The notes below the pieces were generated by a model. That model did no database searches and was not told the origin of the DNA. It saw nothing but the letters and a program-made list of their open reading frames with translations. The position numbers and the translations under genes are program-made. A DNA stretch of 64,000 nucleotides, taken from positions 6,958-70,957 of the forward strand of contig JAXDQI010000256.1 of NCBI GenBank assembly GCA_034667965.1, written 5' to 3'. Numbering within the stretch: the stretch's first letter is position 1; the number at the start of each line of letters is the position of its first letter. The DNA comes from Gammaproteobacteria bacterium (GTDB lineage Bacteria; Pseudomonadota; Gammaproteobacteria; Steroidobacterales; Steroidobacteraceae). Shown one piece after another: positions 434-25,735 of the stretch.

Positions 434-2269
434 ATGAAGAGCATACCTCGCCTTCTTTACGTACTGCCCGTGCTCGGGCTGCTGCTGGGAGCATTGGACG
501 CGCAGGCGCAAAACTTCCGCGTGCAGTGCCCAACCAGCACACCGTTCCACCCCGATGGCAGCAACATCAAGTGCCAGCAAATCGCGGGCGGCGACGGTTA
601 CGCCACCATGGGCGACGGGTCGACCACCTACCTGTTCGGCTTCGGGCCGCTGTCGGGTCTCCCGGACATCTACAAGGGATTGCCGGGAACGCAGGTGAAC
701 AGCGTGTTCAACACGACGTTCGGTCCGGTGACCGGTACGCCGAGCAGCCTGGTGGGCATGCCGGACGGCAATTTCGCCTACGACACCGCATTCAATGGCG
801 GGCCCTTCTTGGGCGCCATCGGCCTCACCGAGGACTACGGTCTCGACCCCTGGGCCGCCGGATTGGTGTACCTCAAAGGCGCGACCGTCCGTACCGCATC
901 GGGAATCTATAGCGCGACGAGCGACGGGACGTCCGGCGCCAATACTCCGGTCGGCACAGGCACCTTCTTCGACGGCGGCGTCCATTGGGCCTATCAGGGC
1001 ACACTGCTCGACGGCCACGTCGACGCCCGGCCCATCATGGATGTGGGCGTCATGAACGCCAACCAGCCGGCGCCGTTGATCGCCATCGACGAGGACGACG
1101 AGTTGTTCCTGACGCTCACCAACGTCGGCATGATCATGCGTCCCGACCTGTTCGAACAGCACACGGTCCACTTTCACGGCTACCCGAACGCTTCCGCCTT
1201 CTACGACGGTGTTCCCGACGCCTCGATCGCCATCAACGTCGGCGGCAGCTTCACCTACTACTACCTCGCGCCCGACGCGGGCACCTACTTCTGGCACTGT
1301 CACATTGCGCCGCCCGAGCATTTGCAAATGGGCATGGTCGGTCAGCTCTACGTGCGGCCGCGGCAGAACCGGGTGGCGGCGGGGGCATCGCTGTACACGG
1401 CGCTGAGCCAATGGGAAACGGGCCCGGCGATGAAGTCGAATCCCGTAAATTTTGCCGATTGGCAGACGTATGAGAACGTGCGCAAGCGTTGCGGCACGAA
1501 CGTCGCGGCGAACATTCCGGCGGACATTCTTTGCACCACGCCGCTGCCCACGAACACGGCTGCGACGCGCGCACCCACGGGCAAGTATGCCTACAACGAC
1601 GGCGACGGCACGACCTACTACGACGTCGAATACCCGATTCAGATACACGGCTTCGACCCGAATTTCCACTTCGTCGGCATGACCTTCAATCCGGAGTCGT
1701 TCAACGACATGAAGGACAAGTACTTCATGCTGAACGGCCGCAGCTATCCCGACACGGTGGGCGGCCACGTGTGCGTGACCAATGACCCGCTACCGGCGTG
1801 CTCCGGTTCACAGGCCGTTACGGTCGGCGGCGTCAAGATAGCCCCGGGTCCGATGGAGACCCAGTCGACGGACGGTACCAACCACGCCTCGCAGCCGCTG
1901 CCGACGGTGATCAACATTCCCGCCGACGGCCACGCGCTGCTGCGCATTTCGGATCTCGACGTCAGTGAGTACCAAACCCTCGCGTCGCTCGGCATACCGA
2001 TGCGGGTGGTCGGCCTCAACGCGCGCCTGCTGCGCGACATGGCCGGCAACAACATGGCTTACAACACGAATTCGATCACGCTCGCGGGCGGTGAATCGAT
2101 CGACGTCATCCTGGACGCGACCGGTCTGCAGCCGCGCCAGAAGTTCTTTCTGTACACACCCAACCTCGATCACCTGTCGAATGACGCCGAGAACTTCGGC
2201 GGTCTCATGACCGAGGTCAACATTTGTAGCTCGGTCGACCCCCAGACCAAAGCTTGCACGAACATCTAG
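434..2269 (+). CDS. Secreted multicopper oxidase paralogue 1 (carries the type-1 Cu site plus two HxH pairs)
   Basis: 611-aa ORF with a Sec-type signal peptide (MKSIPRLLYVLPVLGLLLGALDAQAQ). It has cupredoxin motifs HTVHFHG (nt 1160-1180) and WHCHIAPPEHLQMGM (nt 1292-1336). The C-terminal 'LNGRSYPD...' region is MCO-domain-2-like and has no Cu ligands. Confidence 0.85.
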   Translation: MKSIPRLLYVLPVLGLLLGALDAQAQNFRVQCPTSTPFHPDGSNIKCQQIAGGDGYATMGDGSTTYLFGFGPLSGLPDIYKGLPGTQVNSVFNTTFGPVTGTPSSLVGMPDGNFAYDTAFNGGPFLGAIGLTEDYGLDPWAAGLVYLKGATVRTASGIYSATSDGTSGANTPVGTGTFFDGGVHWAYQGTLLDGHVDARPIMDVGVMNANQPAPLIAIDEDDELFLTLTNVGMIMRPDLFEQHTVHFHGYPNASAFYDGVPDASIAINVGGSFTYYYLAPDAGTYFWHCHIAPPEHLQMGMVGQLYVRPRQNRVAAGASLYTALSQWETGPAMKSNPVNFADWQTYENVRKRCGTNVAANIPADILCTTPLPTNTAATRAPTGKYAYNDGDGTTYYDVEYPIQIHGFDPNFHFVGMTFNPESFNDMKDKYFMLNGRSYPDTVGGHVCVTNDPLPACSGSQAVTVGGVKIAPGPMETQSTDGTNHASQPLPTVINIPADGHALLRISDLDVSEYQTLASLGIPMRVVGLNARLLRDMAGNNMAYNTNSITLAGGESIDVILDATGLQPRQKFFLYTPNLDHLSNDAENFGGLMTEVNICSSVDPQTKACTNI

Positions 2270-2279
2270 GAGAGCGGCG

Positions 2280-3935
2280 ATGCGCGCTATGAATACTAAG
2301 TCACTGCTCGGGCAGGTCCTGCAAGGCGCAACGGTCGCCCTCGGGTCGATGCTCGCACTGTCCGCGCATGCGGCGGCACCCGGCATCACCGGGGCCTCCA
2401 ACGCGCCGGTCTTCAACCTGAACGCGGCGGCGATGCGCGTCACGCAGCCAAACGGCAAGAGCTTGTACTCTTGGGGCTACGGGTGCACCTCGACCACGGG
2501 CAATAGTTTCGCGCCCGCCTCGGTGCGGGGCGCCAACTGTCCGGCGGCGCAGCTGCCGGGACCCACCTTGATCGTCACCGAAGGCGACACGGTGACCGTC
2601 AATCTCACCAACGGACTGCCTGCAGCCGCGGGCGGCACGTCGATTCTCTTCCCCGGCTTCCAAGTGGCGACGTCGGGCGGCACCACGGGATTGCTGACTC
2701 AAGAGGCGCCGAGCCTGGCCTCGTGCGTCACCGGGGGCTGCAATACCGTGAAATACACCTTCACCGCCTCGACGCCGGGTACGCACTCCTACTACAGCGG
2801 AACCCAGGGCGACCTGCAGGTTGAGATGGGGATGTACGGCGCGCTCATCGTCCTGCCGAAAACCGTGCCGAGCAATTGCATTACCGGTGTCCTCGCCGCG
2901 AACAACGTCATTGCCGAAACGACCTCCGGGGAAAGCGATTTCCGTTTGGCGAAAGCGGCCTACGACCACCCGTCCACCTGCTACGACCGGGAATATCTGT
3001 TCCAGTTCTCCGAGATGGACGACAACATCCATAGTCAAGCCGAGGCGCAGGTTCTGGCCGATCAGCTGAAGGCCGTCGGTTCGCAATGCACGAACCCCAC
3101 GGGTTGCCTGGTGGTTGCCACCGAGCCTTATCTGCCGGACTACTACTTGGTCAACGGTCGTTCGATGCCGGACGACATGGACCCGAACTACATACCCATG
3201 TACCCGAATCAGCCGTACAACGGCAATCCGCACATGCATCCCGGCGAGCAGACGCTGGTGCGCATCATCGGCCAGGGCCGATGGCAGCATCCCTTCCACG
3301 AACACGCCAATCACGTGCGAGTGCTGGCCCGCGACGGCAATCTGTTGCTGAGCCCGCCGACGAATCCCAGCGATCCGACCAGCACGCTGCCCGCGGGTCC
3401 GCTCATGTTCACCACCACCACCACGCCGGGCATGACCATGGACGGCATCTTCTATTGGACGGGCCGGGGCCTCAATTGGGACGTGTTCGGGCATGACCCG
3501 TCGCTGGTCGATTCCAACACGAAGAAGCCCTTCGTTTGCGTCCCCGACACCAACGGCTATTTCACCAGCGACCCGACCGCGCCGAACTACTACGAGTGGT
3601 GCGGCGATCACAACAAGGCGCTCGAGAAGCATCCCTTCGGGCAGGTGGCCGCCGGCGGGCCGGTGACCTTGCCGGATCCGAACATCGTCGCGAACGGCAA
3701 CTGGTACGGCGGCAGCCCATACCTCGGAGGCGAAGCCACCGTTCGCGCGGTGGGCGGGACGCCAATCCCTCCCGCCGGCACCGTCGCCAATTCGCCTTCC
3801 GGCGAGGCGGGCTTCGCTTACATGTGGCACTCGCATAACGAGCGCGAGATCACGACGTCCAACGTTTTTCCGGGCGGGATGATGATGATGATGCTCGTCG
3901 ATCCACGTAGTTTCGCGATCGACGAAACGAATTGA
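2280..3935 (+). CDS. Secreted multicopper oxidase paralogue 2 (two HxH pairs, no type-1 Cys)
   Basis: 551-aa ORF starting 11 nt after MCO1, with a signal peptide (...GSMLALSAHAAAPG). The N-terminal cupredoxin-like domain lacks HxH (TSILFPGF, GTHSYYSG at the usual motif positions). The C-terminal domain has WQHPFHEH (nt 3282-3305), WHSH (nt 3825-3836) and then GGMMMMM. Confidence 0.85.
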   Translation: MRAMNTKSLLGQVLQGATVALGSMLALSAHAAAPGITGASNAPVFNLNAAAMRVTQPNGKSLYSWGYGCTSTTGNSFAPASVRGANCPAAQLPGPTLIVTEGDTVTVNLTNGLPAAAGGTSILFPGFQVATSGGTTGLLTQEAPSLASCVTGGCNTVKYTFTASTPGTHSYYSGTQGDLQVEMGMYGALIVLPKTVPSNCITGVLAANNVIAETTSGESDFRLAKAAYDHPSTCYDREYLFQFSEMDDNIHSQAEAQVLADQLKAVGSQCTNPTGCLVVATEPYLPDYYLVNGRSMPDDMDPNYIPMYPNQPYNGNPHMHPGEQTLVRIIGQGRWQHPFHEHANHVRVLARDGNLLLSPPTNPSDPTSTLPAGPLMFTTTTTPGMTMDGIFYWTGRGLNWDVFGHDPSLVDSNTKKPFVCVPDTNGYFTSDPTAPNYYEWCGDHNKALEKHPFGQVAAGGPVTLPDPNIVANGNWYGGSPYLGGEATVRAVGGTPIPPAGTVANSPSGEAGFAYMWHSHNEREITTSNVFPGGMMMMMLVDPRSFAIDETN

Positions 3936-3952: not shown

Positions 3953-6900
3953 ATGCACCTCTTTACATCCAAGACGAGCCGGCTGATCCCTGGATTGGCG
4001 GCTTTGGCTCTCCTGCTGACAGCGAATGCGTCGCAGGCGCAAACGGTCAATCTGACCGCCGCGCCCACCAGCACCACCTTGCCCGACGGGCAAAGTGTGC
4101 CCATGTGGGGATACCATTGCACTGACGCGGGCAGCAATGGCGCGACCTGCGCAGCGGCCAACCCGGCCGTGCAGACGGCCGGAACGGGCTGGTCGCCGAT
4201 CGTGATCACCGTGCCCTATGTGGGCACCGCCACGGCCTCGAGCACCAACCTCACGATCAGCCTCACCAACAACCTGACGTTCGCCGGCGGCAAGATTCCC
4301 ACGTCGCTTACCATCGTCGGTCAGTTGGGCGGCGGCCTCGGCGGCGGCGGCACCACCAGTGTGAGCCCGGTGCATGCCGGTCAGGGAGTTACGTGGCCCG
4401 CCGCGGATCCGACCACGACGTCGACGCCGCCGGCACAGATGCCGCGCGTGCAGTCCTTCGGCACCGAAGTGGCGGTTGGCGCGACGACTGCGCTCACCTG
4501 GAACAAGCTGCGGCCCGGCACCTATTTGATCGAGTCGGGAACACACCCCTCGATTCAAGCCCCCATGGGCCTGTACGGCATTCTGGTCGTCACCACCACC
4601 TCGACCACCCCGGCTCAGGCGTATCCCACGGTCGCGGGTCTGCCCGTCACCGCGCTTGCGGTTTCTCAATATGACGCGGACCTGCCGCTGGTGCTCAGTG
4701 AAATCGATCCGGTGCAGAACGCATCAGTCGCCACCGCGGTCGCCACGACCGGCTTCTTGGAGACGACGGTGTGGAGCGGCCTGCCGGGAAAATGCGGCAA
4801 TCCGCTGAAGGCGGATGGGACCGCCAACGCGAGCTTCAACACCTGCTATCCGCCGGCCGTGAATTACAGCCCGCGCTACTATCTCGTCAACGGCGTGTCG
4901 TTCGATCGGACCAAGATTGCGTCCTCCACGGCCCAGATCCTCCCGCTGCCCGCCACCGTGTCCACGGGCAACGTCATTCTGCGCTTCGCCAACGCGGGTC
5001 TGCGCATGCACATTCCCGCGGTCGTCAACCAGCCGATGACATTGATCGCCGAAGACGGCAACCCGTTGCCCGGTCAGCCGCGCATCCAGAACGAAGTCTT
5101 CATGGCCGCCGGTAAGACGTACGACGTCGAAGTGAAGCCCACGCAGACCTCGGGCGCGTACAGCGCCGCGACGCTCGCGCTCTTCGACCGTCAGTTGAGT
5201 CTCTCCACCAACAATCAGCGCGACGGCGGCATGCAGGCGTACATCGGCGTGGCCGGCGGCGCGACGACGGGTGCCGGGTCCGTCGGGTCCGGCGTGGCCC
5301 TGGGCGGCGTCGCCGCCAAGACTTTCTACTGCGTTTCCGGCACGACGTTGTCCGTGACCGACCCCACCAGCGGATTGTTGGGCGGGACCACCGGTGCGAA
5401 CGGCGTAGCCGCCACTCCGCCCCTCCTGGCCGGCTTGACCATTCAGTCGAACGGTACGTTCACCTATGTTCCGCCGGCCACCGGCGCCTGCGGCGGCAGC
5501 TTCACTTATCTCGTCAACAATTCGCAGTCGGTCACGTCGACCATCGCGCAGTGCGATGCCACCAGCAGTACCGCGACAGGCTGCACGGTGAGCGGCCAGG
5601 CGACCTTGGTCAACGACACCTTCACCGGCACCAACGCCAAGGTATTGGCCATCAGTCCGCCGGGCGTGCTGCTAAACGACATCAATCCCGACGGCCGTCC
5701 GCTGAGCGTGGATCCCGCTACGGTGCAGTCGAGCGGATTGGTGAGCCTCGCCGTCAGTGCGGACGGATCGTTCACAGCCGTGGCGCCCGCCGCGGGCACG
5801 TATACGTTTACCTATAACGTCACGAATTCCCAGCATACGAAGGGCATCGCGCCTGCGACGGTCACGCTGAACTTCCCCCAGGGCTCGGGGCTGAAGGTCA
5901 AATTGGTTGACCAGAAGCATCAGACGGACCCGACGTGGGACCTCGCCGACGCGACCAAGAAGGGCGATTACCGCTGGATCATCGAAGAGGATCGCACCTT
6001 CTGGATCGATCCGAAGTGTCAGGTCAACAGCGCCACGCGACCGAAGGATTCTTACGGCCGCGCCTGCCCGCCGACACCGGTCGAGGCACTGGGCTACAAC
6101 TTCCACACGGCTTCCATGCCGGTGGTGGCCACCGGCTGCGTCGGCAGCATCTCTTGCGAATCGGGGCAGACGGTTTTGGGCGTGGCCGCGGTTTGCGATG
6201 TGGGTGACGGCACCTGCCGCACTGACGCTACGCAGCGCACTGAGTTGACGCCGGATCAGGTGCACCTCGATCCCAACAAGCACTACTTCATCTCCATCAT
6301 GCCGGCCGACGGCATCAACCCGACCGTCAACGGTGCGGGCGGCCCGGTGCAGGTCAATGCGACTTGCGATCCGACCACGACGAACTGCGCCATGCGCCAG
6401 TTCGACGCCACGAAGGATTGTCCGACCCCCGCCGACTTTGCGCCGGGTAGCGGAGCGTGTGGCCACAACATGGGCGGCACGCAGATCGGACCGCAATTCC
6501 TGGCGGACGGCACGCCGACCCCCCCGTCGGTCACCATCTCGCTGGTGGAGACGCCGCTGCCTTCGGCGAAGATCGCGGTGTTGGTGTACGAGGATGACTA
6601 TCCTCTCAATGGCGAGAACGATGCCGGCGGCGGCGTCGACATACTGGCGCCGAATGAAGCCGGTCTCGGCGGCTTCCAGATCGAACTTCTGGACCAAGCC
6701 GGCGCCCTCGGCGACTCCACCGGGCAGATCACCTACGACATGTTCAACATGCCGGTGAGCAATGCGCTGGCCGGCACGCCCGATCCCAACAATCACATGC
6801 AGGACGCGTGCCCGCTCACCTCGAATCCCGACAACCTCGTCGGCAGAATCATCACCTGCCCAACCTACGAAGCCGACGGCACGACCCTGTCGCCGCTCGC

Positions 6901-9900
6901 CGGACAGGCGGTGATCGCGAATCTATACCCCGGCCTCTACGAGCCCCAAGCGTTCCCGGATGCCGACCGCATCGCTCGCGGTGAGGAATGGCTGCAGACC
7001 AACACACTCGACGGCGGCAAACCGCACGAGGCCTTCATCCGACCGGGCGAACCCGCCTACTTCCAGGAATTTGGCCCGGGTGGTTTCCACGTCCAGATCG
7101 GCTTCGCCAACCCGAAGATCATCAACGATCGGCGTCACAACTTGGCCGGCACCGGCATCTGCGATGCGGTCGCCACCGGCGGCGGCGGTTTGGCGTGCAA
7201 ATCGAGCATTTCCGGCCAGGTGCACGGCAACCATATGAGCCGTACGCCGGACGAACGCACCTATGACACGGGCAGCTACGACGCGTTTGCGTTCTCGGCC
7301 TGCTACGTGTCCGTCGGAGTTCCCGATGAACAGGACTTCGCCTTCGCGAAGTGCGATGCCGAGGGCAACTACTCGATGACGGGTCTGCCTAATGGCACGT
7401 ACAAACTGGCGGTGTTCGACCAGTGGAACGACATCATGCTCGACGGCCTCATCACCAGTGTGGTCGTCAACGGCAACACCGTCGTCAATCCGACAGCGAC
7501 CCAGTGGCGCACCAATATCTATACGCGCACTTATCTCGACTTGAACGGCAACGGCATCCCGGATCGTACGTGCGATGCCAATGGCAACTGCACCGATCTT
7601 GAACCCGGCGCCCCGTTGCTTCCCATACAGGTCCGTTATCGCGACGGCAGCATCGGCTTCAAGAACAACACCGACTTGAATGGTTACGCCACGTACAACG
7701 AGGTGTTCCCCTTCATGAACTGGCTGGTGGTCGAACCCGATCAGACCCGTTACAAGCCCACCGGCGAACACGTGGTCTATGACGCCGGCGGTCCGGACGA
7801 TTGCACCACGGGGGCGGCCAAGTGCTCCAACACCGCTGCGCACCTGGCGGGCACTCAGGAATTGGTTTCCCTGCCGTTGGACCTGCGTGTGCCGGGCGCC
7901 GTGTATTGCACGGATGCCGACTGCAGCGACCCCAACGAGTCGATTCTGCTGGGCGCATACAACACCAAGACGGTCGACACCAGCAAGAATCACAACATCA
8001 CCGCCGGGCTCTCCAGCGGCCGCATCGACCCGCCGTGGCATTCCGAAGGCTGGCAGGGCCTGCTGGGCCAGCACAGCTTCATCGACTTCGGCATGAAGCC
8101 CTTCGCTGCGCATGAGAACGGCGGAATCCAGGGTCTGGTCGTGTACTACTCGACCCGCCCCTTCGACGACCCGTCGCTCGACGTGCAGCTGGTATGGGAA
8201 CCGGGCGTGCCGAACGTGCAGATCAATCTGTACCAGGAAGGCACCGCGCCGGACGGTACGACGACGCTGACGCTGGTGGACACGACTCAGACCACGAGCT
8301 GGGACAAGTGGGCCCAGGGTTTCCAAACCGACGGTCACGGTAATCTGCGTAAGCTCGCCGACGGCAGCTACGTGCCCAACATGAACTGCCCGGGCCAGGA
8401 TCCGACCAGCGGCTTCTTTGCGACCCTGCAGGGCAGCAAGATGTGGCTGGACACGGCGGACTCCACCGGCAACAAGAAGCAGCTGGCCTACAACTCGCAA
8501 TTCAAATGCTATGACGGTTGGTCCCAGTTGAACCAGATCGTACCCGCACCGTACGACGGCAAGTACACGTTCCCGAGCACCGTCGAACTCGATCCGGTCA
8601 CCGGCCGTCCCGCAGGCTTAGGTTCGCTCAACGGCATCGCTACACCGTTGATCGGCACCAACTGCAACATCTGTGTCGCCAATCCCGACGACGGCACTCC
8701 GATGCTGCCCGCCGGCAAGTATGTGGTCGAGGCGGTCATGCCCACCGGCTTCGAGATCGTCAAGGAAGAAGACAAGAACATCCTCATGGGCGACATCTAC
8801 ATTGCGCCCGTCTCGCAGCAGTTCGCGGGTCTGGGCAACGTCTTCATCCTGCCCGACCAGGCGGCGGTCAACGCGTACTACAATGCGAACAATCCGCTCA
8901 ATTCGACCACCAACTTAGGCGTGTTGAACCCGCGCGAGGATTTTGCGAGCACGGATCAGATGTGGCCCTGCGTCGGTAAGACGCGCATCGTGCCGGATAC
9001 CATGAGCCTGTTCCCCACCGTCGGCCAGACGGCACCGTTCGCCGGCGCCTCGCGGCCGCTGTGCGACCGCAAGGAAGTTTCCCTGACCGATCAGACGGGA
9101 GTGAGCGCGCGGTTCTACGCGTTCACCAAGAACCATATCGCCGGCCACTTCGTCGGCGGCATGACCAACGACATGGCCTCGGAGTTCGACCCGTTCTCGC
9201 CGCAATTCGGTGAGAAGTTCGGTGTCCCGAACCTTCCCATCCGCATGCGCGACTTCATGGGCGACGAAGTGACCCGGGTGTACGGCGACCAGTGGGGCGC
9301 CTACAACGGACTTTACTTCTCGAGCTGGGAAGTCAATCCGCCGAACCCCACCGGCTATGCGCCGCAGATGTCGGTGGCTTGCATGAACGATCCGGGTCCG
9401 ATCCTGGATGCCGATCCGACGTCGCCCACGCATGGGCAGATGATCACCGACCCGGCGTACAACCCGGCGTACAGCAACTTCTGCTACGAGACGCCGTTCA
9501 TGCCGGGCTTCACCGCCTACATGGATACGCCGGTCACTCCGACGCAGGCCTTCGCGGACCACTACAATCTGCCGGACGCGGAATATCCCGACGGTACGCC
9601 GGTCATCAAGCGCGCCGACTTCACGGGCAACGGCTTCGGCGCGGGCGGCGCCGGCCCCTGGGCGCCCGGTACTGCCGGTATCGGCAGCATCACGGTCACC
9701 AACACGGGCAGCTACACCGCGGTTCCCACCGTCGGCTTCAACGGCGGCGGCGGCAGCGGTGCCGCGGCCAGCCCGCTCATGAGCATCGGTCAGCTGAATC
9801 TGGTCAGCGCCAGCGGCTCGTACACCAACATCGCGACACCGACTGCCACCTTCTCGGCGCCGCCGTGCACCATCAACGGCACCACCTGCGTACGGGCCGT

Positions 9901-12900
9901 CGGCACCGTGCGGATGTCGTCGAATACTCTGGGCAACGCGACGCGCCGCGTCACGGGCATCACTCTGGCGGGCGGCAATAACACGCCCGGCGTCGGCTAC
10001 ACCACGCCGCCCACGGTGACCTTCAGCACCGGACCCGCCAAAGCGACCACAACTCTGGGCGTGAGCAGTGTCACGGTGACCGCGCCGGGCAGCGGCTACA
10101 CCAGCGTGCCCAACGTGACATTCACCGCCGGTGCCAGCCTTGCGACGGCCACCGCCTCCCTGGGCGGCCCCAGCACGACGCTGCCGCTGGTGCTCACGGC
10201 CTTCGGCGATCGCCAGGTCCAGAATCCGCAATTCGCGGGTCCGTCCGCGATCACTGCGCCTTACAACCAGAAGACCGTCACCCGGCACTATGGCTTCGGC
10301 ACGCAGTGCGCGGCCATCAGCACCGGCTGTGCTGCGATCTCGAGCGTCACCGTCGCAGGTCAGCCGGCGACGATCACCGGCTGGTCGGACACGCAGATCA
10401 CGATTACCGTCCCGGCTCTGCCGCTGTGCTCGGTACAGCAGCGCAGCCTGGTGGCGAACGTGGCGAGCCCGTCGCCGGCCGGTTGCGGTGAAGTAGTGAT
10501 CACTGCGGGCAACGGCAAGCAGTCGATCGACGGCATCACCGTCACCGTGGGCGGCAACGCCACCTACGTGACCACGGCAAGCCAGACCTCCATGACGTGG
10601 GGCGAGATAGACAAGAACCCGTTGCAGACGGCGGTCGACAACGCGAAGCCCGGCGATCTCCTCATCATCGAGGCGGGTGCGTATCGCGAAAATCTGCTCA
10701 TGTGGAAGCCGGTACGCCTGCAGGGTGTCGGCGCCGGTTCCGTCACCATCAATGGAGACGCACAGCCTGCCGGCAAGATGGACTCCTGGCGCCGTCGCGT
10801 GAGCTGTCTGTTCGGTCTCACCATCCAGGGTGTGCCCAACAACGGCAATGCCGCGTATGACCCGGACAACCAGTACACTTGCCCCGCGGATCAGTACTTC
10901 CGCTCCGATCGGCTTCCCTTCGAGGGCTTCGTCGGCTGGGATGCCTCGAGCAACGGCAACCTGGCGCAGCTTCTGCAGGAACCGTCGCTGATGGGCGCCT
11001 ATGAAGGGGCGGGCATCACGGTGATTGGCCGCGGCGTGAATCAGCGAGGTTCCGGAAACACGGACCTGTGGGGTGTAGCGGGCGGCGCGGGAACCTTCCC
11101 GGACGGCAGCCGGTACGTGAGCCTGGCCGATTGCAGGCCGCCGGCCAGCACCGGCAGTACGGCGACCAGAAACATCAACGACTACGGCACCAGCAACTTC
11201 CTTTGCAACCCGTCGGCCATCGACGGCGTGAGCATCCTGAACAGTTCGCAGGGCGGCGGCGGTATCTACCTGCATGGTTGGAACCACAACATTCAGATCG
11301 CCAACACCCGCATCTCCGCGAACGCGGGAACCTTGTCGGGCGCGATCAATCTCGGCAGCGGTGAGACGCCGCCGGCGTTCACCGTCGACAACACGATCTG
11401 CGGCAACACGGGTGCGAACCCCACGCCGCTGTGTCCGCCGAGTGTGCCGAATGCGCAATTGCCCAATGTGCCGGCGACGTTGTTGAACGGGGAGATCCCA
11501 TTCCAGTTCAACACCAACGTGCACATTCATCACAACCAGATCCTGGACAACGCCTCGATCGGTGATGCGCTGTTCTCCGGCTCGCCGGCCGGTGCGGGTG
11601 GCGTGACCATCAGTGCGGGTTCGGACAACTACGAGCTGGACCACAACTGGATCGCGGCCAACCTGACCTCGAGCGACGGCGGCGGTGTGGCGCAAATGGG
11701 CGTGAGCTTCAATGGCAAGATTCACAACAACTTCGTGTTGTTCAATCAGGCCAATAATCCGACGCTCCCCGTCGACGGCGGCGGCATCATCATCATGGGC
11801 GCTCAGGAAGATCGCACCCTGCCGAGCGGTCAGGAATGCGGCGGCACCACCGACCTCGACTGCCCGCCGGGCATCGGCGACGGCACGGGTCCGGGTCTCG
11901 TGATCGATTCGAACCTGATTCTCGGCAACAGCGCCGAGGACGGCAGCGGCGGCGGCCTGCGCCTGCGGCAGACGAATGGTACCGAGGTCGCGGCCTTCCT
12001 CAAGAGCCCGCAGAACTGGTACGGCATCACCGTGACCAACAACATCATCGCGAACAACGTCGCGGGATGGGATGGCGGCGGCGTGTCCTTGCAGGATTCG
12101 TTCAAGACCGTGTTCACCAACAACACCGTGGCATCCAACGACACCACCGCGTCCGCGGGTGTGCTGTTCAAGACGCTGGGTGCGATCAGTGCCGCTTCGC
12201 CGCCTCCGGGATGCTTGCCGACTCCGGATCCGACGCAGCCGCAGAACCCGGCCTGCTTGCTGACGAATGGACCGCACATTCCGCAGCCGGCCGGTTTGGT
12301 GACCATGCAAAACACGCCGAACATGATGTCGCAGCTGCCGAGCGGCGTGGTCTGCCCGGCGGGCTTCGGCTACGGCACGACCAATCCCAACGGCACGGAA
12401 TCGAATCTGACCAACGGCCGTTGCGTGCTCGTCAGCCTGCCGCAGATCAACAATGATCTGTTCTGGCAGAACCGGGCGTTCCACGTCGAGATCGTCGACG
12501 CGAACGGCAATACGATCGCTTCGGGCAACTCGCCGCCCACGGGGACCGGCTTGAAATCAAATCAGAACCTCGTGGCGCTGCTGCCCGAGTTCACGCAGAG
12601 CTACACGGGTCAGTGCGTCACGCCGCCGGCAAGCCAAGAGTTGTATTGGGACGTCGGTGTGCGATGGGACCTGCTGCCGAACGGCCAAGGTCAAGCGCTG
12701 GTGTTCAACGCCGCAACGGTGGGCGCGGGATCCTACACGCCGGCCAACGGCGGCAGCGGGGTGTCTGCGAACCTCAATGACGCGGGTCCGATCGCGCTCT
12801 CGGCCTCCTATTCCATCTTCAGCGACGCGCTGAATATGGGAAATGTGAAGCCGGGATCCATGGGCAACATGGCGCCTTCCAAGACGCCGGTGATCGGCCA

Positions 12901-14152
12901 GTATTGCAACGGTGCACGCATACCGCCCGAGCAATGCGCCGCCGGCCAGGGTGCGAACGACCCCGGCATGTGCAAGGGCTACTTCACGCCGGCCGGCCAG
13001 TCGGAAACCGTCGGTGTCGCTCCGGTGTTCCAGTTCAACGGCATCGCGGCCAGCGCGACGGTGGACGAGGGCAATAACTGGATCAACATGACCTACGGCC
13101 CGTTGACTCTGAGCCGTCCGCCGTCTGCCGGTGCCGGTTCGACGCCGTCGGCCGAGCCGACGGTGGCCAGCGCCGCAGTGGGCATCGCACAGGGTGCTTA
13201 CTCGATCGCTTCCGATTCGGCCGCGGTCGGTGCCGGATATCCGACGGCGCCGGGTACGCCCAACCACGACTTCTACGGCCAGCCGCGGTCGACGTCGGGC
13301 GTGTCCATCGGTGCAGTGGAGTTTGCAGTGCCGCCGCCCACGCTGACGGCGATCACGCCGGCTGCGGGGGTGCAGGGGACGACCGTGGCGGTGACGCTCA
13401 CCGGCACCAATTTCACGGCCGGTAGCGTCGTTTTGGTCTCGGGCAACGGCATCAATCAGTTCGGTCTGGTTGAGGTGAGCGCAACGCAGCTCACGACGAA
13501 TATCCAGATCTCGGGGAGTGCAACCCTGGGTGCGCGGAACGTGACGGTATCGACTTCCGGCGGCGTTACCGCGCCGGTGACCTTCACCATCGTCGCCAAG
13601 CCGCCGGCGCCGACGCTGACGTCGATCTCGCCAAACTCCGGGACGCGCGGCTCGACCGTGACGGTTACCTTGACCGGCACGAACTTCTCGGCGGCCGGAT
13701 TGGCGGTGAACGTGAGCGGTTCAGGCGTGACGCCGATCAATGTCACCTATGTGAGCCCCACGCAGGTGAAGGCGGACTTCGTGATCGGTCCAAACGCGAA
13801 CACCAACAATAGAAACGTCACGGTCACCACGTCGGGGGGTACGAGCGGCTCAAGGACCTTTACGGTCTCGAACCCGCCGCGGCCGACGCTGGCGTCGATT
13901 GCTCCGACGGTGGGAACGCATGGCACGAACGTGACGGTGACCCTGACCGGCACCAACTTCACGTCGACGGGGACGTCCATCAATGTCACGGGCACCGGTG
14001 TGGTGGCGACCGTCACGTCCGTGACGCCGACGCAGATCGTCGCGACCTTCGCCATCACTTCGGGTGCGCTACACACTGCAAGGGCGGTCAATGTGACGAC
14101 GCCCGGAGGAACGAATGTGCAAAGCCAGAACCGCACGTTTACCGTCAACTGA
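3953..14152 (+). CDS. Giant (3399 aa) secreted multidomain protein: Cu-less MCO-like head, cadherin-like/VCBS-type repeats, Cna-B/SdrD-like modules, right-handed beta-helix, C-terminal IPT/TIG repeats
   Basis: Uninterrupted ORF with a signal peptide (...LLLTANASQAQ). The first ~430 aa align in pattern with MCO domains 1 and 2 (WGY..., GTYLIESGTHPSIQAPMGLYGILVV, YYLVNGVSFD...) but contain no HxH/HCH motif. Further modules are 'VLLNDINPDGRPLSV', 'YSMTGLPNGTYKLAVFD', GSGYTSVPNVTF-type repeats, beta-helix repeats (NNIIANNVAGWDGGGVSLQD, DHNWIAANLTSSDGGGV) and 3 x ~90-aa IPT/TIG repeats at the end. Confidence 0.9.
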   Translation: MHLFTSKTSRLIPGLAALALLLTANASQAQTVNLTAAPTSTTLPDGQSVPMWGYHCTDAGSNGATCAAANPAVQTAGTGWSPIVITVPYVGTATASSTNLTISLTNNLTFAGGKIPTSLTIVGQLGGGLGGGGTTSVSPVHAGQGVTWPAADPTTTSTPPAQMPRVQSFGTEVAVGATTALTWNKLRPGTYLIESGTHPSIQAPMGLYGILVVTTTSTTPAQAYPTVAGLPVTALAVSQYDADLPLVLSEIDPVQNASVATAVATTGFLETTVWSGLPGKCGNPLKADGTANASFNTCYPPAVNYSPRYYLVNGVSFDRTKIASSTAQILPLPATVSTGNVILRFANAGLRMHIPAVVNQPMTLIAEDGNPLPGQPRIQNEVFMAAGKTYDVEVKPTQTSGAYSAATLALFDRQLSLSTNNQRDGGMQAYIGVAGGATTGAGSVGSGVALGGVAAKTFYCVSGTTLSVTDPTSGLLGGTTGANGVAATPPLLAGLTIQSNGTFTYVPPATGACGGSFTYLVNNSQSVTSTIAQCDATSSTATGCTVSGQATLVNDTFTGTNAKVLAISPPGVLLNDINPDGRPLSVDPATVQSSGLVSLAVSADGSFTAVAPAAGTYTFTYNVTNSQHTKGIAPATVTLNFPQGSGLKVKLVDQKHQTDPTWDLADATKKGDYRWIIEEDRTFWIDPKCQVNSATRPKDSYGRACPPTPVEALGYNFHTASMPVVATGCVGSISCESGQTVLGVAAVCDVGDGTCRTDATQRTELTPDQVHLDPNKHYFISIMPADGINPTVNGAGGPVQVNATCDPTTTNCAMRQFDATKDCPTPADFAPGSGACGHNMGGTQIGPQFLADGTPTPPSVTISLVETPLPSAKIAVLVYEDDYPLNGENDAGGGVDILAPNEAGLGGFQIELLDQAGALGDSTGQITYDMFNMPVSNALAGTPDPNNHMQDACPLTSNPDNLVGRIITCPTYEADGTTLSPLAGQAVIANLYPGLYEPQAFPDADRIARGEEWLQTNTLDGGKPHEAFIRPGEPAYFQEFGPGGFHVQIGFANPKIINDRRHNLAGTGICDAVATGGGGLACKSSISGQVHGNHMSRTPDERTYDTGSYDAFAFSACYVSVGVPDEQDFAFAKCDAEGNYSMTGLPNGTYKLAVFDQWNDIMLDGLITSVVVNGNTVVNPTATQWRTNIYTRTYLDLNGNGIPDRTCDANGNCTDLEPGAPLLPIQVRYRDGSIGFKNNTDLNGYATYNEVFPFMNWLVVEPDQTRYKPTGEHVVYDAGGPDDCTTGAAKCSNTAAHLAGTQELVSLPLDLRVPGAVYCTDADCSDPNESILLGAYNTKTVDTSKNHNITAGLSSGRIDPPWHSEGWQGLLGQHSFIDFGMKPFAAHENGGIQGLVVYYSTRPFDDPSLDVQLVWEPGVPNVQINLYQEGTAPDGTTTLTLVDTTQTTSWDKWAQGFQTDGHGNLRKLADGSYVPNMNCPGQDPTSGFFATLQGSKMWLDTADSTGNKKQLAYNSQFKCYDGWSQLNQIVPAPYDGKYTFPSTVELDPVTGRPAGLGSLNGIATPLIGTNCNICVANPDDGTPMLPAGKYVVEAVMPTGFEIVKEEDKNILMGDIYIAPVSQQFAGLGNVFILPDQAAVNAYYNANNPLNSTTNLGVLNPREDFASTDQMWPCVGKTRIVPDTMSLFPTVGQTAPFAGASRPLCDRKEVSLTDQTGVSARFYAFTKNHIAGHFVGGMTNDMASEFDPFSPQFGEKFGVPNLPIRMRDFMGDEVTRVYGDQWGAYNGLYFSSWEVNPPNPTGYAPQMSVACMNDPGPILDADPTSPTHGQMITDPAYNPAYSNFCYETPFMPGFTAYMDTPVTPTQAFADHYNLPDAEYPDGTPVIKRADFTGNGFGAGGAGPWAPGTAGIGSITVTNTGSYTAVPTVGFNGGGGSGAAASPLMSIGQLNLVSASGSYTNIATPTATFSAPPCTINGTTCVRAVGTVRMSSNTLGNATRRVTGITLAGGNNTPGVGYTTPPTVTFSTGPAKATTTLGVSSVTVTAPGSGYTSVPNVTFTAGASLATATASLGGPSTTLPLVLTAFGDRQVQNPQFAGPSAITAPYNQKTVTRHYGFGTQCAAISTGCAAISSVTVAGQPATITGWSDTQITITVPALPLCSVQQRSLVANVASPSPAGCGEVVITAGNGKQSIDGITVTVGGNATYVTTASQTSMTWGEIDKNPLQTAVDNAKPGDLLIIEAGAYRENLLMWKPVRLQGVGAGSVTINGDAQPAGKMDSWRRRVSCLFGLTIQGVPNNGNAAYDPDNQYTCPADQYFRSDRLPFEGFVGWDASSNGNLAQLLQEPSLMGAYEGAGITVIGRGVNQRGSGNTDLWGVAGGAGTFPDGSRYVSLADCRPPASTGSTATRNINDYGTSNFLCNPSAIDGVSILNSSQGGGGIYLHGWNHNIQIANTRISANAGTLSGAINLGSGETPPAFTVDNTICGNTGANPTPLCPPSVPNAQLPNVPATLLNGEIPFQFNTNVHIHHNQILDNASIGDALFSGSPAGAGGVTISAGSDNYELDHNWIAANLTSSDGGGVAQMGVSFNGKIHNNFVLFNQANNPTLPVDGGGIIIMGAQEDRTLPSGQECGGTTDLDCPPGIGDGTGPGLVIDSNLILGNSAEDGSGGGLRLRQTNGTEVAAFLKSPQNWYGITVTNNIIANNVAGWDGGGVSLQDSFKTVFTNNTVASNDTTASAGVLFKTLGAISAASPPPGCLPTPDPTQPQNPACLLTNGPHIPQPAGLVTMQNTPNMMSQLPSGVVCPAGFGYGTTNPNGTESNLTNGRCVLVSLPQINNDLFWQNRAFHVEIVDANGNTIASGNSPPTGTGLKSNQNLVALLPEFTQSYTGQCVTPPASQELYWDVGVRWDLLPNGQGQALVFNAATVGAGSYTPANGGSGVSANLNDAGPIALSASYSIFSDALNMGNVKPGSMGNMAPSKTPVIGQYCNGARIPPEQCAAGQGANDPGMCKGYFTPAGQSETVGVAPVFQFNGIAASATVDEGNNWINMTYGPLTLSRPPSAGAGSTPSAEPTVASAAVGIAQGAYSIASDSAAVGAGYPTAPGTPNHDFYGQPRSTSGVSIGAVEFAVPPPTLTAITPAAGVQGTTVAVTLTGTNFTAGSVVLVSGNGINQFGLVEVSATQLTTNIQISGSATLGARNVTVSTSGGVTAPVTFTIVAKPPAPTLTSISPNSGTRGSTVTVTLTGTNFSAAGLAVNVSGSGVTPINVTYVSPTQVKADFVIGPNANTNNRNVTVTTSGGTSGSRTFTVSNPPRPTLASIAPTVGTHGTNVTVTLTGTNFTSTGTSINVTGTGVVATVTSVTPTQIVATFAITSGALHTARAVNVTTPGGTNVQSQNRTFTVN
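13331..14149 (+). repeat. Three tandem ~270-273 bp coding repeats (IPT/TIG-like Ig domains) at the 3' end of the giant gene
   Basis: Repeat starts at ~13331 (PPPTLTAITPAAGVQGTTVAVTLTGTNFTAG), ~13601 (PPAPTLTSISPNSGTRGSTVTVTLTGTNFSAAG) and ~13874 (PPRPTLASIAPTVGTHGTNVTVTLTGTNFTSTG). Confidence 0.85.
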
Positions 14153-14161: not shown

Positions 14162-14662
14162 GTGCCAGGACGCCGCAATCCGATGGAGACTGCAGGAATG
14201 AGTGGGTGCAGGAGAAAGTCCATGGGCGGTCGGCTCGCGTCGATCGCGGCCATCGTGCTCGTCGCAGCCGCCTCGAGCGTCGCGGCCGGCTCGAGCGTCG
14301 CAGCCGGCTCGAGCGCGGCAGCACCTCCGTCTGCGCGCGTTCGCGCCGGCGGATCGTTGCAGCACCGAGTCGACGTCCTTTCCAGAGCACTGCAACTCGA
14401 TGCGCGGCAGCGGGCCGAACTGCTGACCATTCTCGAACGCCAGCGCCAGACCGTCACCAAGATCTGGAGCGACCCTGCGTTGCTTCCTGCCGAGCGTACG
14501 CCCGCGACCCGCGCGCTTCAGGAGCGCACCGCGGACCAGATCCGAGCCATCCTCTCGGAGGAGCAGAGAAATCGGTACAACCCACCGAAACCGAAGGACG
14601 CCGCGCCGCCGTCGCCGAACGTGGCAGACTGGATGCAGACGCAGGCGCGGCAGCAGCAGTAG
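14162..14662 (+). CDS. Small secreted protein, possibly LTXXQ/Spy-CpxP-like periplasmic chaperone or metal-stress protein
   Basis: 166-aa ORF. The start is more likely ATG 14222 (MGGRLASIAAIVLVAAA..., a signal peptide). The helical body has LxxxQ-type motifs (LDARQRAELLTILERQ, ILSEEQRNRY). The family call is tentative. Confidence 0.5.
   Translation: MPGRRNPMETAGMSGCRRKSMGGRLASIAAIVLVAAASSVAAGSSVAAGSSAAAPPSARVRAGGSLQHRVDVLSRALQLDARQRAELLTILERQRQTVTKIWSDPALLPAERTPATRALQERTADQIRAILSEEQRNRYNPPKPKDAAPPSPNVADWMQTQARQQQ
14261..14314 (+). repeat. 18-bp x 3 tandem repeat (GTCGCRGCCGSCTCGAGC) encoding (VAA[A/G]SS)3
   Basis: Read directly at 14261-14278, 14279-14296 and 14297-14314. It lies in the signal-peptide/N-terminal region of the 14162-14662 ORF. 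Confidence 0.8.
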
Positions 14663-14684: not shown

Positions 14685-14948
14685 ATGTTGCGAATCGATC
14701 AAATCATCGGCGCTTGCGGCGTCACCGCTGCATTAGTCGCAGCGACTTTCCTGGCGATGCCGGCGCGGGCGGAGGCGCCCTTGCCGACTGCGCCGTCCGC
14801 GGTGACGAAGAAGAAAGTCGTGTCGCCGTATGCGCGCGCCGCGGCGCAGCATGAACGGGTCGGAGAGGCCCCGGTGGGTCACGCTCCGACCAGGGTGCAG
14901 GGAATGGGCAAGCCGCATAAACCGCATGCAGGCGCGCCACGCAAATGA
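14685..14948 (+). CDS. Small secreted hypothetical protein (87 aa)
   Basis: Signal-peptide-like N-terminus (...AALVAATFLAMPARAEA) and a basic His/Pro-rich tail (GKPHKPHAGAPRK). It is co-directional, and its stop overlaps the next start (14945). Confidence 0.45.
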   Translation: MLRIDQIIGACGVTAALVAATFLAMPARAEAPLPTAPSAVTKKKVVSPYARAAAQHERVGEAPVGHAPTRVQGMGKPHKPHAGAPRK

Positions 14949-15433
14949 ACATTCGCGCGGGCCTCGTATTCTGCTGCGTCCTGTCCTCTGCGTCTCTGGC
15001 GCAGGCACCCGCGCCAGGGTCCGCGGCTTTGCCGCCCGCCAACCACGCCGGCAAGACTTCGCCCTATCACGGCATGAAGTTGAGCGAAAAGGCGCGCGCG
15101 TACTATCCCGCGGCCTGGGGCGTCGATCATCTGCGGGTGAGCTACACCTCGTCCGGCAATCTGATTCGCTTCAGCTACCGGGTGTTGGAGCCCAAGCTGG
15201 CGAGGGCGCTCGGCGACCACGAGTCGACGCCCTACCTGTACGCGCCGCGATCGCATGCCATGCTGCAAGTACCTACGATGGAAAAGATCGGCCAACTCAG
15301 GCAGCTCAATGCCGCCGAGGCCAACAAGGAATACTGGATGGCGTTCTCCAACAAAGGCAATCTCGTGCGTCCCGGTGAACGGGTCAACGTGATCATCGGA
15401 AAATTTCATGCCGACGGCATGCTCGTCGAGTAA
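14945..15433 (+). CDS. Secreted hypothetical protein (162 aa)
   Basis: Signal peptide (MNIRAGLVFCCVLSSASLAQA) and a 4-nt overlap with the preceding ORF. No family was recognised. Confidence 0.55.
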   Translation: MNIRAGLVFCCVLSSASLAQAPAPGSAALPPANHAGKTSPYHGMKLSEKARAYYPAAWGVDHLRVSYTSSGNLIRFSYRVLEPKLARALGDHESTPYLYAPRSHAMLQVPTMEKIGQLRQLNAAEANKEYWMAFSNKGNLVRPGERVNVIIGKFHADGMLVE

Positions 15434-15459
15434 TCATCATGTGCTCTAGAGGATCAACC

Positions 15460-16269
15460 ATGAATCGTGTTTCCCTATTTGCTGGCTGCCTGCTGTCGCT
15501 GGGCGCTGCCGCCAACAGCCCTGTCATCGCCGCCGCGGCGGCCACGCACGCTCCGGCGTCACTAAGCGTCGACCAGATCGTAGAGCGCAATGTCGCGGCG
15601 CACGGCGGCCTTGCCGCCTGGCGGGCTGCGAAAACCCTGACCATCGCCGGTGAAATGGACGCCGGCGGCAAGCCGAATCATGCGCTGCCGTTCGTGCTCA
15701 AGGAGAAGCGCCCGCGCAAGAGCCGGCTCGAGATCGTGTTCAAGGATCAAACGTCGGTTCAGGTGTACGACGGCGCCCAGGGCTGGAAAGTGCGTCCGTT
15801 CCTCAACCGCAACGAAGTCGAAACCTATACCGCGGCCGAAATCAAATCTGCCGCAGCGGATCAGGATCTCGACGGTCCGCTGGTGGACTATGCGGCGAAG
15901 GGCACGCAGATCGCGCTCGCCGGCTCCGAGGCGGTGGAGGGGCACCGGGCCTACAAGCTGAAACTCACGCTGCGCAATGGCGACAAGCGGAACCTGTGGA
16001 TCGATGCCGGTACGTACCTCGAACTCAAGATGCAGGGCGAGCCACGCAAGCTCGATGGCCGACTGCATAATGTCGCCGTCTATTTCCGCGATTACAAGAC
16101 CGAGCACGGGCTCACCACTGCGCGGCTGCAGGAAACCGCCGTCGAGGGCGTGAAGCAAACCTATAAAATGACTATTTCCCGCGTGGCGGTGAACGAGCCC
16201 CTGGACGATTCCCTGTTCCAGAGGCCGCAGCTCGCGGCGCTTGCGACGCCGGGCCCCACGCAGCACTAG
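15460..16269 (+). CDS. LolA-like / outer-membrane lipoprotein-sorting-like protein, paralogue 1
   Basis: Start chosen at ATG 15460 (GAGGA 6 nt upstream), giving MNRVSLFAGCLLSLGAAANS. 'SVDQIVERNVAAHGGLAAWRAAKTLTIAGEM' resembles the N-terminal signature of the LolA_like family. It is paralogous to the next ORF. Confidence 0.6.
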   Translation: MNRVSLFAGCLLSLGAAANSPVIAAAAATHAPASLSVDQIVERNVAAHGGLAAWRAAKTLTIAGEMDAGGKPNHALPFVLKEKRPRKSRLEIVFKDQTSVQVYDGAQGWKVRPFLNRNEVETYTAAEIKSAAADQDLDGPLVDYAAKGTQIALAGSEAVEGHRAYKLKLTLRNGDKRNLWIDAGTYLELKMQGEPRKLDGRLHNVAVYFRDYKTEHGLTTARLQETAVEGVKQTYKMTISRVAVNEPLDDSLFQRPQLAALATPGPTQH

Positions 16270-16270
16270 C

Positions 16271-19550: not shown

Positions 19551-19750
19551 CAATGGTCCCTTTGCCGACTCCGCGAGCCGCCAGCATGGCACCAGGGCGC
19601 CCGGATCGCTTACCCGATACTACTTAATGCGAGGAGGAAAGTAGGTAGATTGTCCAAAAGTCCTTGTTGGTGCCAGGGTGGTCCAGTACCCTAATTTGCG
19701 TCAGGGCACGCGTCTCGCGTCGGGCACCGCATCTTTTCGAGAGGATCACG

Positions 19751-20488: not shown

Positions 20489-20490
20489 CG

Positions 20491-22798: not shown

Positions 22799-22804
22799 GC
22801 CACC

Positions 22805-23985: not shown

Positions 23986-23989
<4 letters not shown>
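22805..23989 (+). CDS. gspF: GspF/PilC-family inner-membrane platform protein
   Basis: 394 aa with a GTG start. It has the duplicated T2SSF pattern (two cytoplasmic helical domains, each followed by TM segments), e.g. IFSQELVSLLDAGLSLVEAIEAL and LYRTVGMLLRSGMPAVTAM. Confidence 0.85.

Positions 23990-25735
<1,746 letters not shown>

Follow-up and report, generated by a model that had tools for sequence, protein, structure and literature searches.

We analysed a stretch of 64,000 nucleotides (here called the window) from a gammaproteobacterium of the Steroidobacteraceae (GenBank assembly GCA_034667965.1, contig JAXDQI010000256.1, positions 6,958 to 70,957), in which three consecutive genes on the forward strand encode proteins related to multicopper oxidases (MCOs). 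The first gene specifies alpha (MCO1; 434..2269; 611 residues) and the second beta (MCO2; 2280..3935; 551 residues). They are followed by the gene for a giant secreted protein of 3399 residues (3953..14152), the N-terminal part of which is referred to here as gamma. The three open reading frames have matches in Pfam, for the giant protein also in NCBIfam, and the gene calls are supported by the GC content at third codon positions (0.83-0.84 across the three genes and 0.84 for alpha). The original prediction, made from the sequence of the window, held that neither MCO1 nor MCO2 is a complete oxidase and that the copper ligands of one catalytic unit, a type 1 (T1) copper site and a trinuclear cluster, are divided between the two in an obligate heteromer. 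Every sequence-based test that we ran supports this division, and we consider it probable that alpha, beta and gamma are paralogous two-domain cupredoxin subunits of one oxidase, arranged as a ring of six domains that has one T1 site and one trinuclear cluster built between chains. The obligate pairing of MCO1 and MCO2 thus stands with regard to its core, while the third module at the N-terminus of the giant protein had been overlooked.

Relatives of alpha were collected in a scan with one genome per species, which detected them in at least 565 species representatives. The best 80 of these loci (L001-L080) were kept, and close orthologues were taken from them for alpha (n=77), beta (n=74) and the gamma module (n=67); gene order in the 80 loci was read by tblastn. 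Distant relatives of beta were retrieved by an exhaustive HMMER search with beta as the query, which returned 1849 clusters at an expectation value (E) of E<=1e-3 and 222 at E<=1e-30. The genomic contexts of six such relatives (L081, L082, L083, L086, L087 and L088) were examined, and their neighbours were typed with hidden Markov models built from the orthologue sets. Paralogy between the modules was assessed by profile-profile comparison of the orthologue alignments with hhalign, and monomer models of alpha and beta were built with AlphaFold2 on 20-sequence alignments.

Alpha starts with a Sec-type signal peptide (residues 1-25, by inspection) and contains two cupredoxin domains; an identical protein in NCBI is listed as a hypothetical protein from the metagenome-assembled genome (MAG) of a gammaproteobacterium. 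The core of domain 1 (residues 194-312; 1013..1369) carries the T1 site together with half of the ligands for a trinuclear cluster and is matched over residues 204-311 by the Pfam families Cu-oxidase_3 (E 3e-14) and Cu-oxidase_2 (E 8e-13). Its closest relatives in the PDB, in sequence as well as profile searches, are the first domains of two type-C two-domain MCOs, the Nitrosomonas europaea blue copper oxidase 3g5w (E 3e-15) and the metagenomic mgLAC 2zwn (E 5e-14), and the ligands are in register. The motif HTVHFHG (1160..1180), aligned to HTIHWHG of 3g5w, provides the T1 ligand H243 and the cluster ligands H246 and H248. The motif WHCHIAPPEHLQMGM (1292..1336), which pairs with YHCHVNVNEHVTMRGM of 3g5w, provides the cluster ligands H288 and H290 and the T1 ligands C289, H296 and M301. 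All eight residues are conserved in 77 of 77 orthologues, and no other part of the system is as highly conserved as this core, in which 71% of the columns are invariant. The claim that MCO1 holds a full T1 site and exactly two HxH pairs was borne out, as no HxH beyond the two canonical pairs is present in alpha or in any of its 77 close orthologues. The distant alpha of L086 has a third HxH, HFH at residue 258 of its own numbering, the position of which relative to the two motifs is unmapped.

Domain 2 of alpha (residues 385-611; 1586..2266), recognized as cupredoxin-like through its hhalign match with domain 2 of beta, is devoid of canonical copper ligands. Since 41% of its columns are invariant, the domain is constrained and not vestigial. 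Domain 1 of alpha is interrupted ahead of the core by a variable insert (residues 95-193; 716..1012) with only 3% invariant columns, which is missing from distant alpha proteins of 410-475 residues. No Pfam family matched the insert at E<=10, and a weak profile match was obtained with the receptor-binding domain of a cyanophage tailspike (7eea, E 6e-6). This hypervariable segment of about 100 residues may be a small binding module. In the AlphaFold2 model of alpha, the sole confident beta-strands lie within it (residues 140-190; predicted local distance difference test score, pLDDT, around 80).

Beta likewise begins with a Sec-type signal peptide (residues 1-31, by inspection) and comprises two cupredoxin domains. 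The assignment of Sec-type rather than twin-arginine signal peptides to MCO1 and MCO2 agrees with our inspection, in which we saw no twin-arginine motif. In L081, the distant alpha (4021-5253) begins with MSRERALDRKQFLVLGG, which looks more like a twin-arginine than a Sec signal, and judging by this N-terminus the export route may differ between lineages.

In beta, the distribution of ligands is reversed. Domain 1 (residues 33-195; 2376..2864) is matched by Cu-oxidase_3 over residues 90-194 (E 2e-12) and has lost all of its copper ligands; beta also has a weak match to Cu-oxidase_2 (E 4e-4). Its degenerate motifs read TSILFPGF (2637-2660) and GTHSYYSG (2778-2801), and in the alignment with the two-domain MCO 3gdc, G118, L123 and P125 occupy three histidine positions while Y172, S173 and G174 stand at the His, Cys and His positions. 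There is no conserved HxH in this domain across the 74 orthologues. Domain 2 (residues 233-551; 2976..3932), identified by profile alignment with the second domains of 3g5w and 2zwn, contains the other half of the cluster ligands and no T1 site. In the motif WQHPFHEHANH (3282..3314, the WQHPFHEH portion at 3282-3305), which was aligned to HVHAIHTHGH of 3g5w domain 2, H340 and H342 are the cluster ligands; H337 (3288-3290) is a relic at the T1 position and H345 (3312-3314) is invariant. The second motif, WHSH (3825..3836), supplies the cluster ligands H517 and H519 and corresponds to FHDH of 2zwn domain 2. As had been read from the window alone, a serine (S518) replaces the T1 cysteine and no histidine follows H519; the serine is present in 74 of 74 orthologues. 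All other motifs that the original prediction quoted for the two proteins, including the degenerate ones of domain 1, were also recovered at the coordinates given here. Close to the end of beta, a methionine run, GGMMMMML (3873-3896; M534-M538, 92-99% conserved), lies at the last cupredoxin strand, in the place of the canonical GM that contains the axial T1 ligand of MCOs.

The count of HxH pairs had to be corrected. The original prediction credited MCO2 with two pairs, which are indeed the canonical ones, and missed a third, H318-M-H320 (3231..3239), which is present in 74 of 74 close orthologues. The two proteins together therefore contain five HxH pairs and not exactly four. In the 74 orthologues the pairs at 318, 340 and 517 as well as S518, H337 and H345 are 100% conserved. 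The additional pair sits off the canonical MCO positions, so a search for extra pairs that might make either protein a complete MCO yields one in MCO2, which is non-canonical, and none in MCO1. Full-length distant betas that we inspected (37-48% identity) all keep HPxHxH and WHSH, with serine universal at the cysteine position, and are devoid of ligands in domain 1. H318 is absent from them and H320 from some, and the extra pair is hence not a universal cluster ligand; as these proteins retain the canonical pairs without it, we rejected the idea that H318 and H320 stand in for a canonical pair.

A third two-domain cupredoxin module, gamma (residues ~31-445 of the giant protein; 4043..5287), was recognized by hhalign and by a Pfam match to Cu-oxidase (PF00394; residues 307-408, E 2e-4). 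Comparison of beta with gamma gave a probability of 99.4% (E 5e-22, 29% identity) over residues 1-409 and 1-399, covering both domains, and alpha (195-564) aligned collinearly with beta (76-395) at a probability of 96% (E 2e-9). From these collinear profile alignments it follows that alpha, beta and gamma each hold a module of domain 1 and domain 2. Gamma is without canonical ligands, and no conserved HxH was found in it across 67 orthologues. At the sequence level, the ligand-bearing domains are thus alpha domain 1 and beta domain 2 only, four of the six domains being without canonical ligands, and the T1 site formed by H243, C289, H296 and M301 of alpha is absent from both beta, with its Ser518, and gamma. 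The two gamma domains have 23-24% invariant columns, and over all ligand-free domains of the trio the range is 23-41%, which indicates that these domains are constrained, as expected if they form interfaces. Three gamma histidines, H141 (4373-4375), H198 (4544-4546) and H353 (5009-5011), are kept at 96-100% in the 67 close orthologues and are not kept in distant gammas; H353 is aligned with beta H337. The gamma homologue of L086 (3113-4918) is the sole gamma with an HxH in the second domain, HLH at residue 331, the position of which relative to the first canonical motif of beta is unmapped. The giant protein itself also begins with a Sec-like signal peptide (by inspection). According to Pfam and NCBIfam, its body is made up of Big_9/cadherin-like domains, a right-handed beta-helix of the NosD-like type and TIG/CoaZ repeats at the C-terminus. 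No relative was found when the full-length giant sequence was compared with those in the PDB.

The division of ligands between alpha and beta can be understood by comparison with the two-domain MCOs, which are trimers whose trinuclear clusters draw ligands from two protomers; in type C, the N-terminal domain holds the T1 site (PMC13151041). Alignment to these enzymes placed alpha domain 1 and beta domain 2 on type-C domains 1 and 2, respectively, with the ligands in register. In the second case, HPFHEH of beta corresponds to HAIHTH and WHSH to FHDH; beta GELTLLRIIGQGRLQHPFHEHANHVRVLARDG was aligned with GDVIRLRLIGAGDHVHAIHTHGH of 3g5w and beta YMWHSHNEREIT with FIFHDHVDTHVT of 2zwn, in which a T1-less HDH lies opposite HSH. 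A type-C chain has two cupredoxin domains, with the T1 site and two HxH pairs in domain 1 and two HxH pairs without a T1 cysteine in domain 2, and the homology of alpha domain 1 and beta domain 2 therefore means that the inter-chain site of type C is here split in half between different gene products. In type C one chain holds both halves, and three identical chains form three clusters. In the trio each half is accompanied by a degenerate domain, a ligand-free third paralogue is added and at most one cluster per assembly is possible. A T1 site in the N-terminal domain of a two-domain chain is found in alpha, while beta and gamma have the two-domain layout without it. Ligands from both domains of each chain, as in type C, are not seen, because alpha domain 2, beta domain 1 and both gamma domains have no ligand histidines in any of the 77, 74 and 67 close orthologues. 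The set of eight histidines in four HxH pairs is not complete in any single chain and is complete, at the sequence level, in alpha and beta taken together.

The twelve ligand positions of alpha and beta are 100% conserved across phyla. These motifs are far beyond chance in view of the Pfam E-values and of this conservation. It could be argued that the complementarity arose incidentally as alpha and beta diverged from a two-domain protein ancestral to both and that the two proteins have separate functions, alpha being a homo-oligomer with a partial (mono- or binuclear) site or a role in electron transfer, and beta an independent copper-binding protein or chaperone. Relatives of the NirK type, which have a mononuclear interface copper, are among the PDB matches, and the invariant histidines of beta exceed what half a cluster needs, both of which would fit this explanation. 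However, the histidines on either side of the cysteine in alpha, with its HxH and HCH motifs, are the signature of type 3 copper ligands and not the NirK pattern; a NirK-type mononuclear site for alpha was rejected for this reason and because of the HxH in its first motif. Furthermore, the eight canonical cluster positions are fully kept over very large distances while the reciprocal positions have been lost in both proteins, and the strict adjacency of the genes with their coupling-type 11-nt spacer suggests that the products are made together. We therefore regard separate functions as quite unlikely.

Alpha relatives occur in Steroidobacteraceae and other Gammaproteobacteria, in Gallionellaceae (MAGs L014 and L029), Acidobacteriota, Anaeromyxobacter and Binatia, and in cultured isolates of Burkholderia, Paraburkholderia, Trinickia and Cupriavidus. 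Throughout the 80 loci the order alpha-beta-giant was found on one strand as far as the contig reaches, with the exception of L079. This is the sole related locus without beta; there, a frameshifted alpha fragment (9845-11463, residues 23-527) is followed by 4.3 kb of unrelated sequence, and this probably represents either a pseudogene or a MAG contig that was assembled wrongly. Beta starts 11 nt after the alpha stop in the window and in most of the 80 loci, which include Proteobacteria, Acidobacteriota, Myxococcota and Binatia, and such rigid spacing across phyla suggests translational coupling. The giant gene always comes after beta, mostly at a distance of 15-20 nt. Spacings of this kind are the pattern expected of co-translated partners.

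All six distant lineages, with beta proteins 37-45% identical to that of the window, have the order alpha-beta-gamma and the same partition of ligands. What varies is the protein to which gamma belongs. In the window it is joined to the body of the giant protein. A homologue of that body is encoded by a separate gene just upstream of alpha in five of the six distant lineages; it was not seen in L083, and the L086 contig is too short to tell. Gamma of L083, from a compact trio of 472, 544 and 453 residues, is a stand-alone protein of 453 residues with no other domain besides a short C-terminal tail, that of L082 has 698 residues and includes cadherin/Big_9 domains, that of L087 has 764 residues, and in L081 gamma and beta are fused in one chain of 1156 residues (P0336). 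Alternative fusions of this Rosetta-stone type are classically taken as evidence of parts that work in the same assembly. We also looked for covariation between the middle residue of the first alpha motif (F, W or Y) and the variable residue of the first canonical HxH motif of beta (E, H, P, L, T or I) in seven lineages; there was no simple pattern and the idea was dropped.

These findings also bear on whether the catalytic complex might consist of alpha and beta only, with gamma outside the ring as a degenerate paralogue that belongs to a cargo or scaffold protein and perhaps serves for docking. The complementarity of ligands involves just alpha and beta, and motifs cannot tell what the role of the ligand-free gamma is. 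Yet gamma is encoded beside alpha and beta in all lineages examined, it is known both on its own and fused to beta, and its domains are conserved. In addition, an open alpha-beta pair would leave two interfaces unpaired, whereas the known two-domain cupredoxin enzymes, two-domain MCOs and NirK, are closed trimers and thus six-domain rings (PMC13151041). We consider a complex of this composition unlikely.

According to the reading that we prefer, a ring is proposed because three paralogous modules are always encoded together. By analogy with homotrimeric two-domain MCOs, alpha, beta and gamma would assemble 1:1:1 into a ring of six domains with copper ligands at only one of the three inter-subunit interfaces, that of alpha domain 1 against beta domain 2. 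Alpha would contribute the T1 site and the cluster histidines H246/H248 and H288/H290, and beta the remaining four, H340/H342 and H517/H519, in a geometry that we infer from the same enzymes. Electrons from the substrate would enter at the T1 copper of alpha and run via the H288-C289-H290 bridge to the shared trinuclear cluster, where oxygen would be reduced to water. With gamma the ring would be closed and the oxidase anchored to the very large scaffold of beta-helix and Ig-like domains. Alpha, beta and the giant protein would be exported by Sec, folding and copper loading presumably taking place in the periplasm, possibly assisted by an FKBP isomerase, a MofC-like cytochrome c protein and small conserved accessory proteins. 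An atypical system for type II secretion, encoded by linked genes, would then release or display the complex. The substrate might, as a guess from the MofB/MofC-type context, be a metal ion outside the cell, for example Mn(II) or Fe(II), or else phenolic or humic material.

Several observations weigh against this proposal. Stoichiometry and ring order are deduced purely from the homotrimeric two-domain MCOs. The AlphaFold2 monomers were poor, with a mean pLDDT of 39.9 and a predicted template modelling score of 0.24 for alpha and a mean pLDDT of 47.8 for beta, of which only domain 1 was confident; a Foldseek search of the beta model against the PDB gave generic matches to domain 1 of NirK, CueO and laccase-type MCOs only. 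Beta also has six invariant histidines beyond the cluster set (H251, H318, H320, H337, H345 and H444), which could form a different metal or substrate site and would complicate the picture of eight histidines. Finally, no heterotrimeric MCO with genetically distinct subunits was found in the openly searchable literature.

The genes downstream of the trio provide the components named above. The gene for a small exported protein with weak similarity to Metal_resist/LTXXQ (Spy/CpxP-like) proteins, below the Pfam cut-off, follows on the forward strand (14162..14662). Next comes that for a conserved accessory protein of 162 residues (14945..15433, +) for which no Pfam match was obtained even at E<=10. 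Homologues of the latter, small exported proteins of about 140-170 residues, lie directly after gamma in L082 (13790-14284), L083 (10117-10545) and L087 (11127-11639) and adjoin the trio in L013, L016, L018, L019 and L068. It is a probable fourth conserved component, which may serve in assembly or as a copper chaperone. Two tandem paralogous LolA-like exported proteins (15439..17110, +), the first recognized by Pfam LolA_like and both matching the same region of L013, are near the trio only in L013 among the related loci. They precede the gene for a MofC-like protein (17110..18786, +) with one CxxCH (residue 73) and a periplasmic-binding-protein-like domain (weak Peripla_BP_6 match), which is 33% identical to the product of the cytochrome c gene of L082 and has the architecture reported for MofC-like proteins (PMC5566968). 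A MofB-like FKBP-type peptidyl-prolyl isomerase (Pfam FKBP_N and FKBP_C) is encoded on the opposite strand (18783..19592, -), and homologues adjoin the trio in L016 and L019. A scan of positions 1-17200 yielded no promoter-like sites and fewer terminator-like sites than shuffled sequences, and did not delimit the operon.

Regulatory and secretion genes follow. A LuxR-type response regulator and a stand-alone receiver protein (19664..20889, +; Pfam) are encoded first, and a LuxR-type regulator recurs upstream of alpha in 12 loci; the PAS/HisKA_3 histidine kinase encoded further downstream (31959..33329, +; Pfam) is its likely partner. An AAA ATPase with a C-terminal FHA domain (20916-22088, -) lies between the regulators and the secretion genes. 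The latter constitute a complete though atypical type II secretion set (22316..31509, +; Pfam) of a GspG-like pseudopilin, GspF, GspE, four unassigned genes, a secretin and two more pseudopilins, and the same set is located directly upstream of alpha in about 20 of 80 related loci. In the secretin (28276-30627), TPR and STN elements at the N-terminus are combined with a C-terminal Cohesin domain. Dockerin-like GDVDGDGKITIADAL repeats form the end of the stand-alone gamma of L083, and together with the Cohesin domain of the secretin they hint at anchoring of the oxidase at the secretion pore in the manner of cohesin and dockerin. Copper- and redox-related genes accompany the trio elsewhere as well: L082 carries SCO1/SenC in addition to its MofC-like cytochrome c gene, and CopC/CopD occur in L081. 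A gene for a subtilisin-like Peptidase_S8 follows the trio in L082 and L087; the first 33 kb of the window contain neither this gene nor CopC/CopD. From about 33.3 kb onwards, the genes are of the housekeeping kind, such as a Suf iron-sulfur assembly operon (Rrf2 regulator, SufB, SufC, SufD, SufS and FeS_assembly_P; 36400-43624, -), which marks the end of the oxidase and secretion island.

The attachment of the trio to a giant adhesin-like protein, and the fact that four of six domains are without any ligands, might suggest that oxidase function has been lost and that the proteins are non-catalytic cupredoxin scaffolds akin to FtsP/SufI, with a structural or adhesive role on the giant protein and motifs that are mere relics. 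Relics would not, however, stay 100% invariant at 12 ligand positions in 74-77 orthologues from several phyla and in six distant lineages, the ligand-bearing domain 1 of alpha would not be expected to be the most conserved segment, and the copper and redox genes (SCO1/SenC, CopC/CopD and the MofC-like cytochrome c) speak against a purely structural role. We regard this explanation as highly improbable. All three alternatives are less consistent than the ring of alpha, beta and gamma with a universal and conserved gamma and with the twelve perfectly conserved ligands.

To our knowledge, every characterised MCO has its complete ligand set in one gene product, arranged either within a chain or between identical chains. 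Ceruloplasmin and MnxG-type enzymes form a pseudo-threefold ring of six cupredoxin domains with a single trinuclear cluster at one domain interface. Weak matches to ceruloplasmin were found for alpha domain 1 in the PDB search. Ceruloplasmin is one polypeptide with several T1 sites, whereas the ring of the trio would consist of three chains with one T1 site, or of two chains in the lineage with the P0336-type fusion of beta and gamma. The Mnx manganese oxidase of Bacillus is a hetero-oligomeric complex containing an MCO, in which MnxG is complete alone and MnxE and MnxF are small non-cupredoxin partners; the trio differs from it in that the catalytic ligands themselves are divided between subunits. 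Nmar_1354 (archaeal MCO4, PDB 9CCK) has been described as an alpha-alpha-alpha-prime heterotrimer, in which the heterogeneity arises from copies of one gene product, one of them without an extra cupredoxin domain (PMC11761707). Its two-domain MCO core is among the PDB matches to alpha domain 1, but every chain carries full ligand sets.

With respect to gene content, a described counterpart is a cluster in Sideroxydans lithotrophicus ES-1 with three tandem genes for predicted extracellular MCO-like proteins, a mofC-like cytochrome c gene and SCO1/SenC (PMC5566968). Compared by description, L082 has the same gene content, and the window has the FKBP gene instead of SCO1, with signal peptides on alpha, beta and the gamma-giant protein and a MofC-like gene downstream. 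Strain ES-1 was not among the best 80 alpha loci, although the Gallionellaceae MAGs L014 and L029, which carry a trio of the window's type, were. He et al. (2017) noted few clues to the function of the ES-1 cluster and gave no analysis of ligand partition or of a heteromer (PMC5566968). A division of ligands or a heteromeric enzyme for these genes was likewise not found elsewhere in the openly searchable literature. OmpB of Geobacter and MofA of Leptothrix are extracellular MCOs encoded next to MofB, an FKBP isomerase, and MofC, a cytochrome c with a periplasmic-binding domain (PMC5566968). The window resembles these clusters in its MofB-like, MofC-like and atypical type II secretion genes. 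Again compared by description, OmpB and MofA are single large MCO chains, whereas the oxidase of the window is spread over three genes (PMC5566968).

We see an even chance that the trio constitutes, in at least 565 species, an obligate alpha-beta-gamma heterotrimer that is mounted on a giant scaffold and served by a dedicated type II secretion system. It would stand as a living intermediate, with partial fusions such as that of beta and gamma, between the homotrimeric two-domain MCOs and single-chain six-domain MCOs such as ceruloplasmin. If so, dividing the catalytic ligands between gene products would amount to a quaternary arrangement new to this class of enzymes, and the co-encoded, obligatory and ligand-free third paralogue would likewise be new for MCOs. 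The tandem genes themselves were noted in 2017 (PMC5566968), and the split of the ligands is apparently undescribed. If the proposal holds, the three-gene trio and the beta-gamma fusion would represent two successive stages on the way to six-domain oxidases. In a long-standing model, two-domain trimers gave rise to these oxidases through duplication, the loss of copper sites that had become redundant, and fusion. The proteins are handled as ordinary 'multicopper oxidases' in genome annotation and laccase mining, and any one subunit expressed alone would be expected to be inactive. The cultured carriers in Paraburkholderia, Trinickia, Burkholderia and Cupriavidus, among them Paraburkholderia adhaesiva, Trinickia symbiotica and Cupriavidus basilensis (loci L050, L041 and L064), make the trio genetically testable. 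Its occurrence in Gallionellaceae, which are relatives of iron oxidisers, and its neighbours of the MofB/MofC type make it a candidate for extracellular oxidation of metals or organic matter, and, given its presence in at least 565 species from soils and sediments, it could be an extracellular oxidase of major importance, so far unrecognised, that acts on metals or on humic and phenolic matter.

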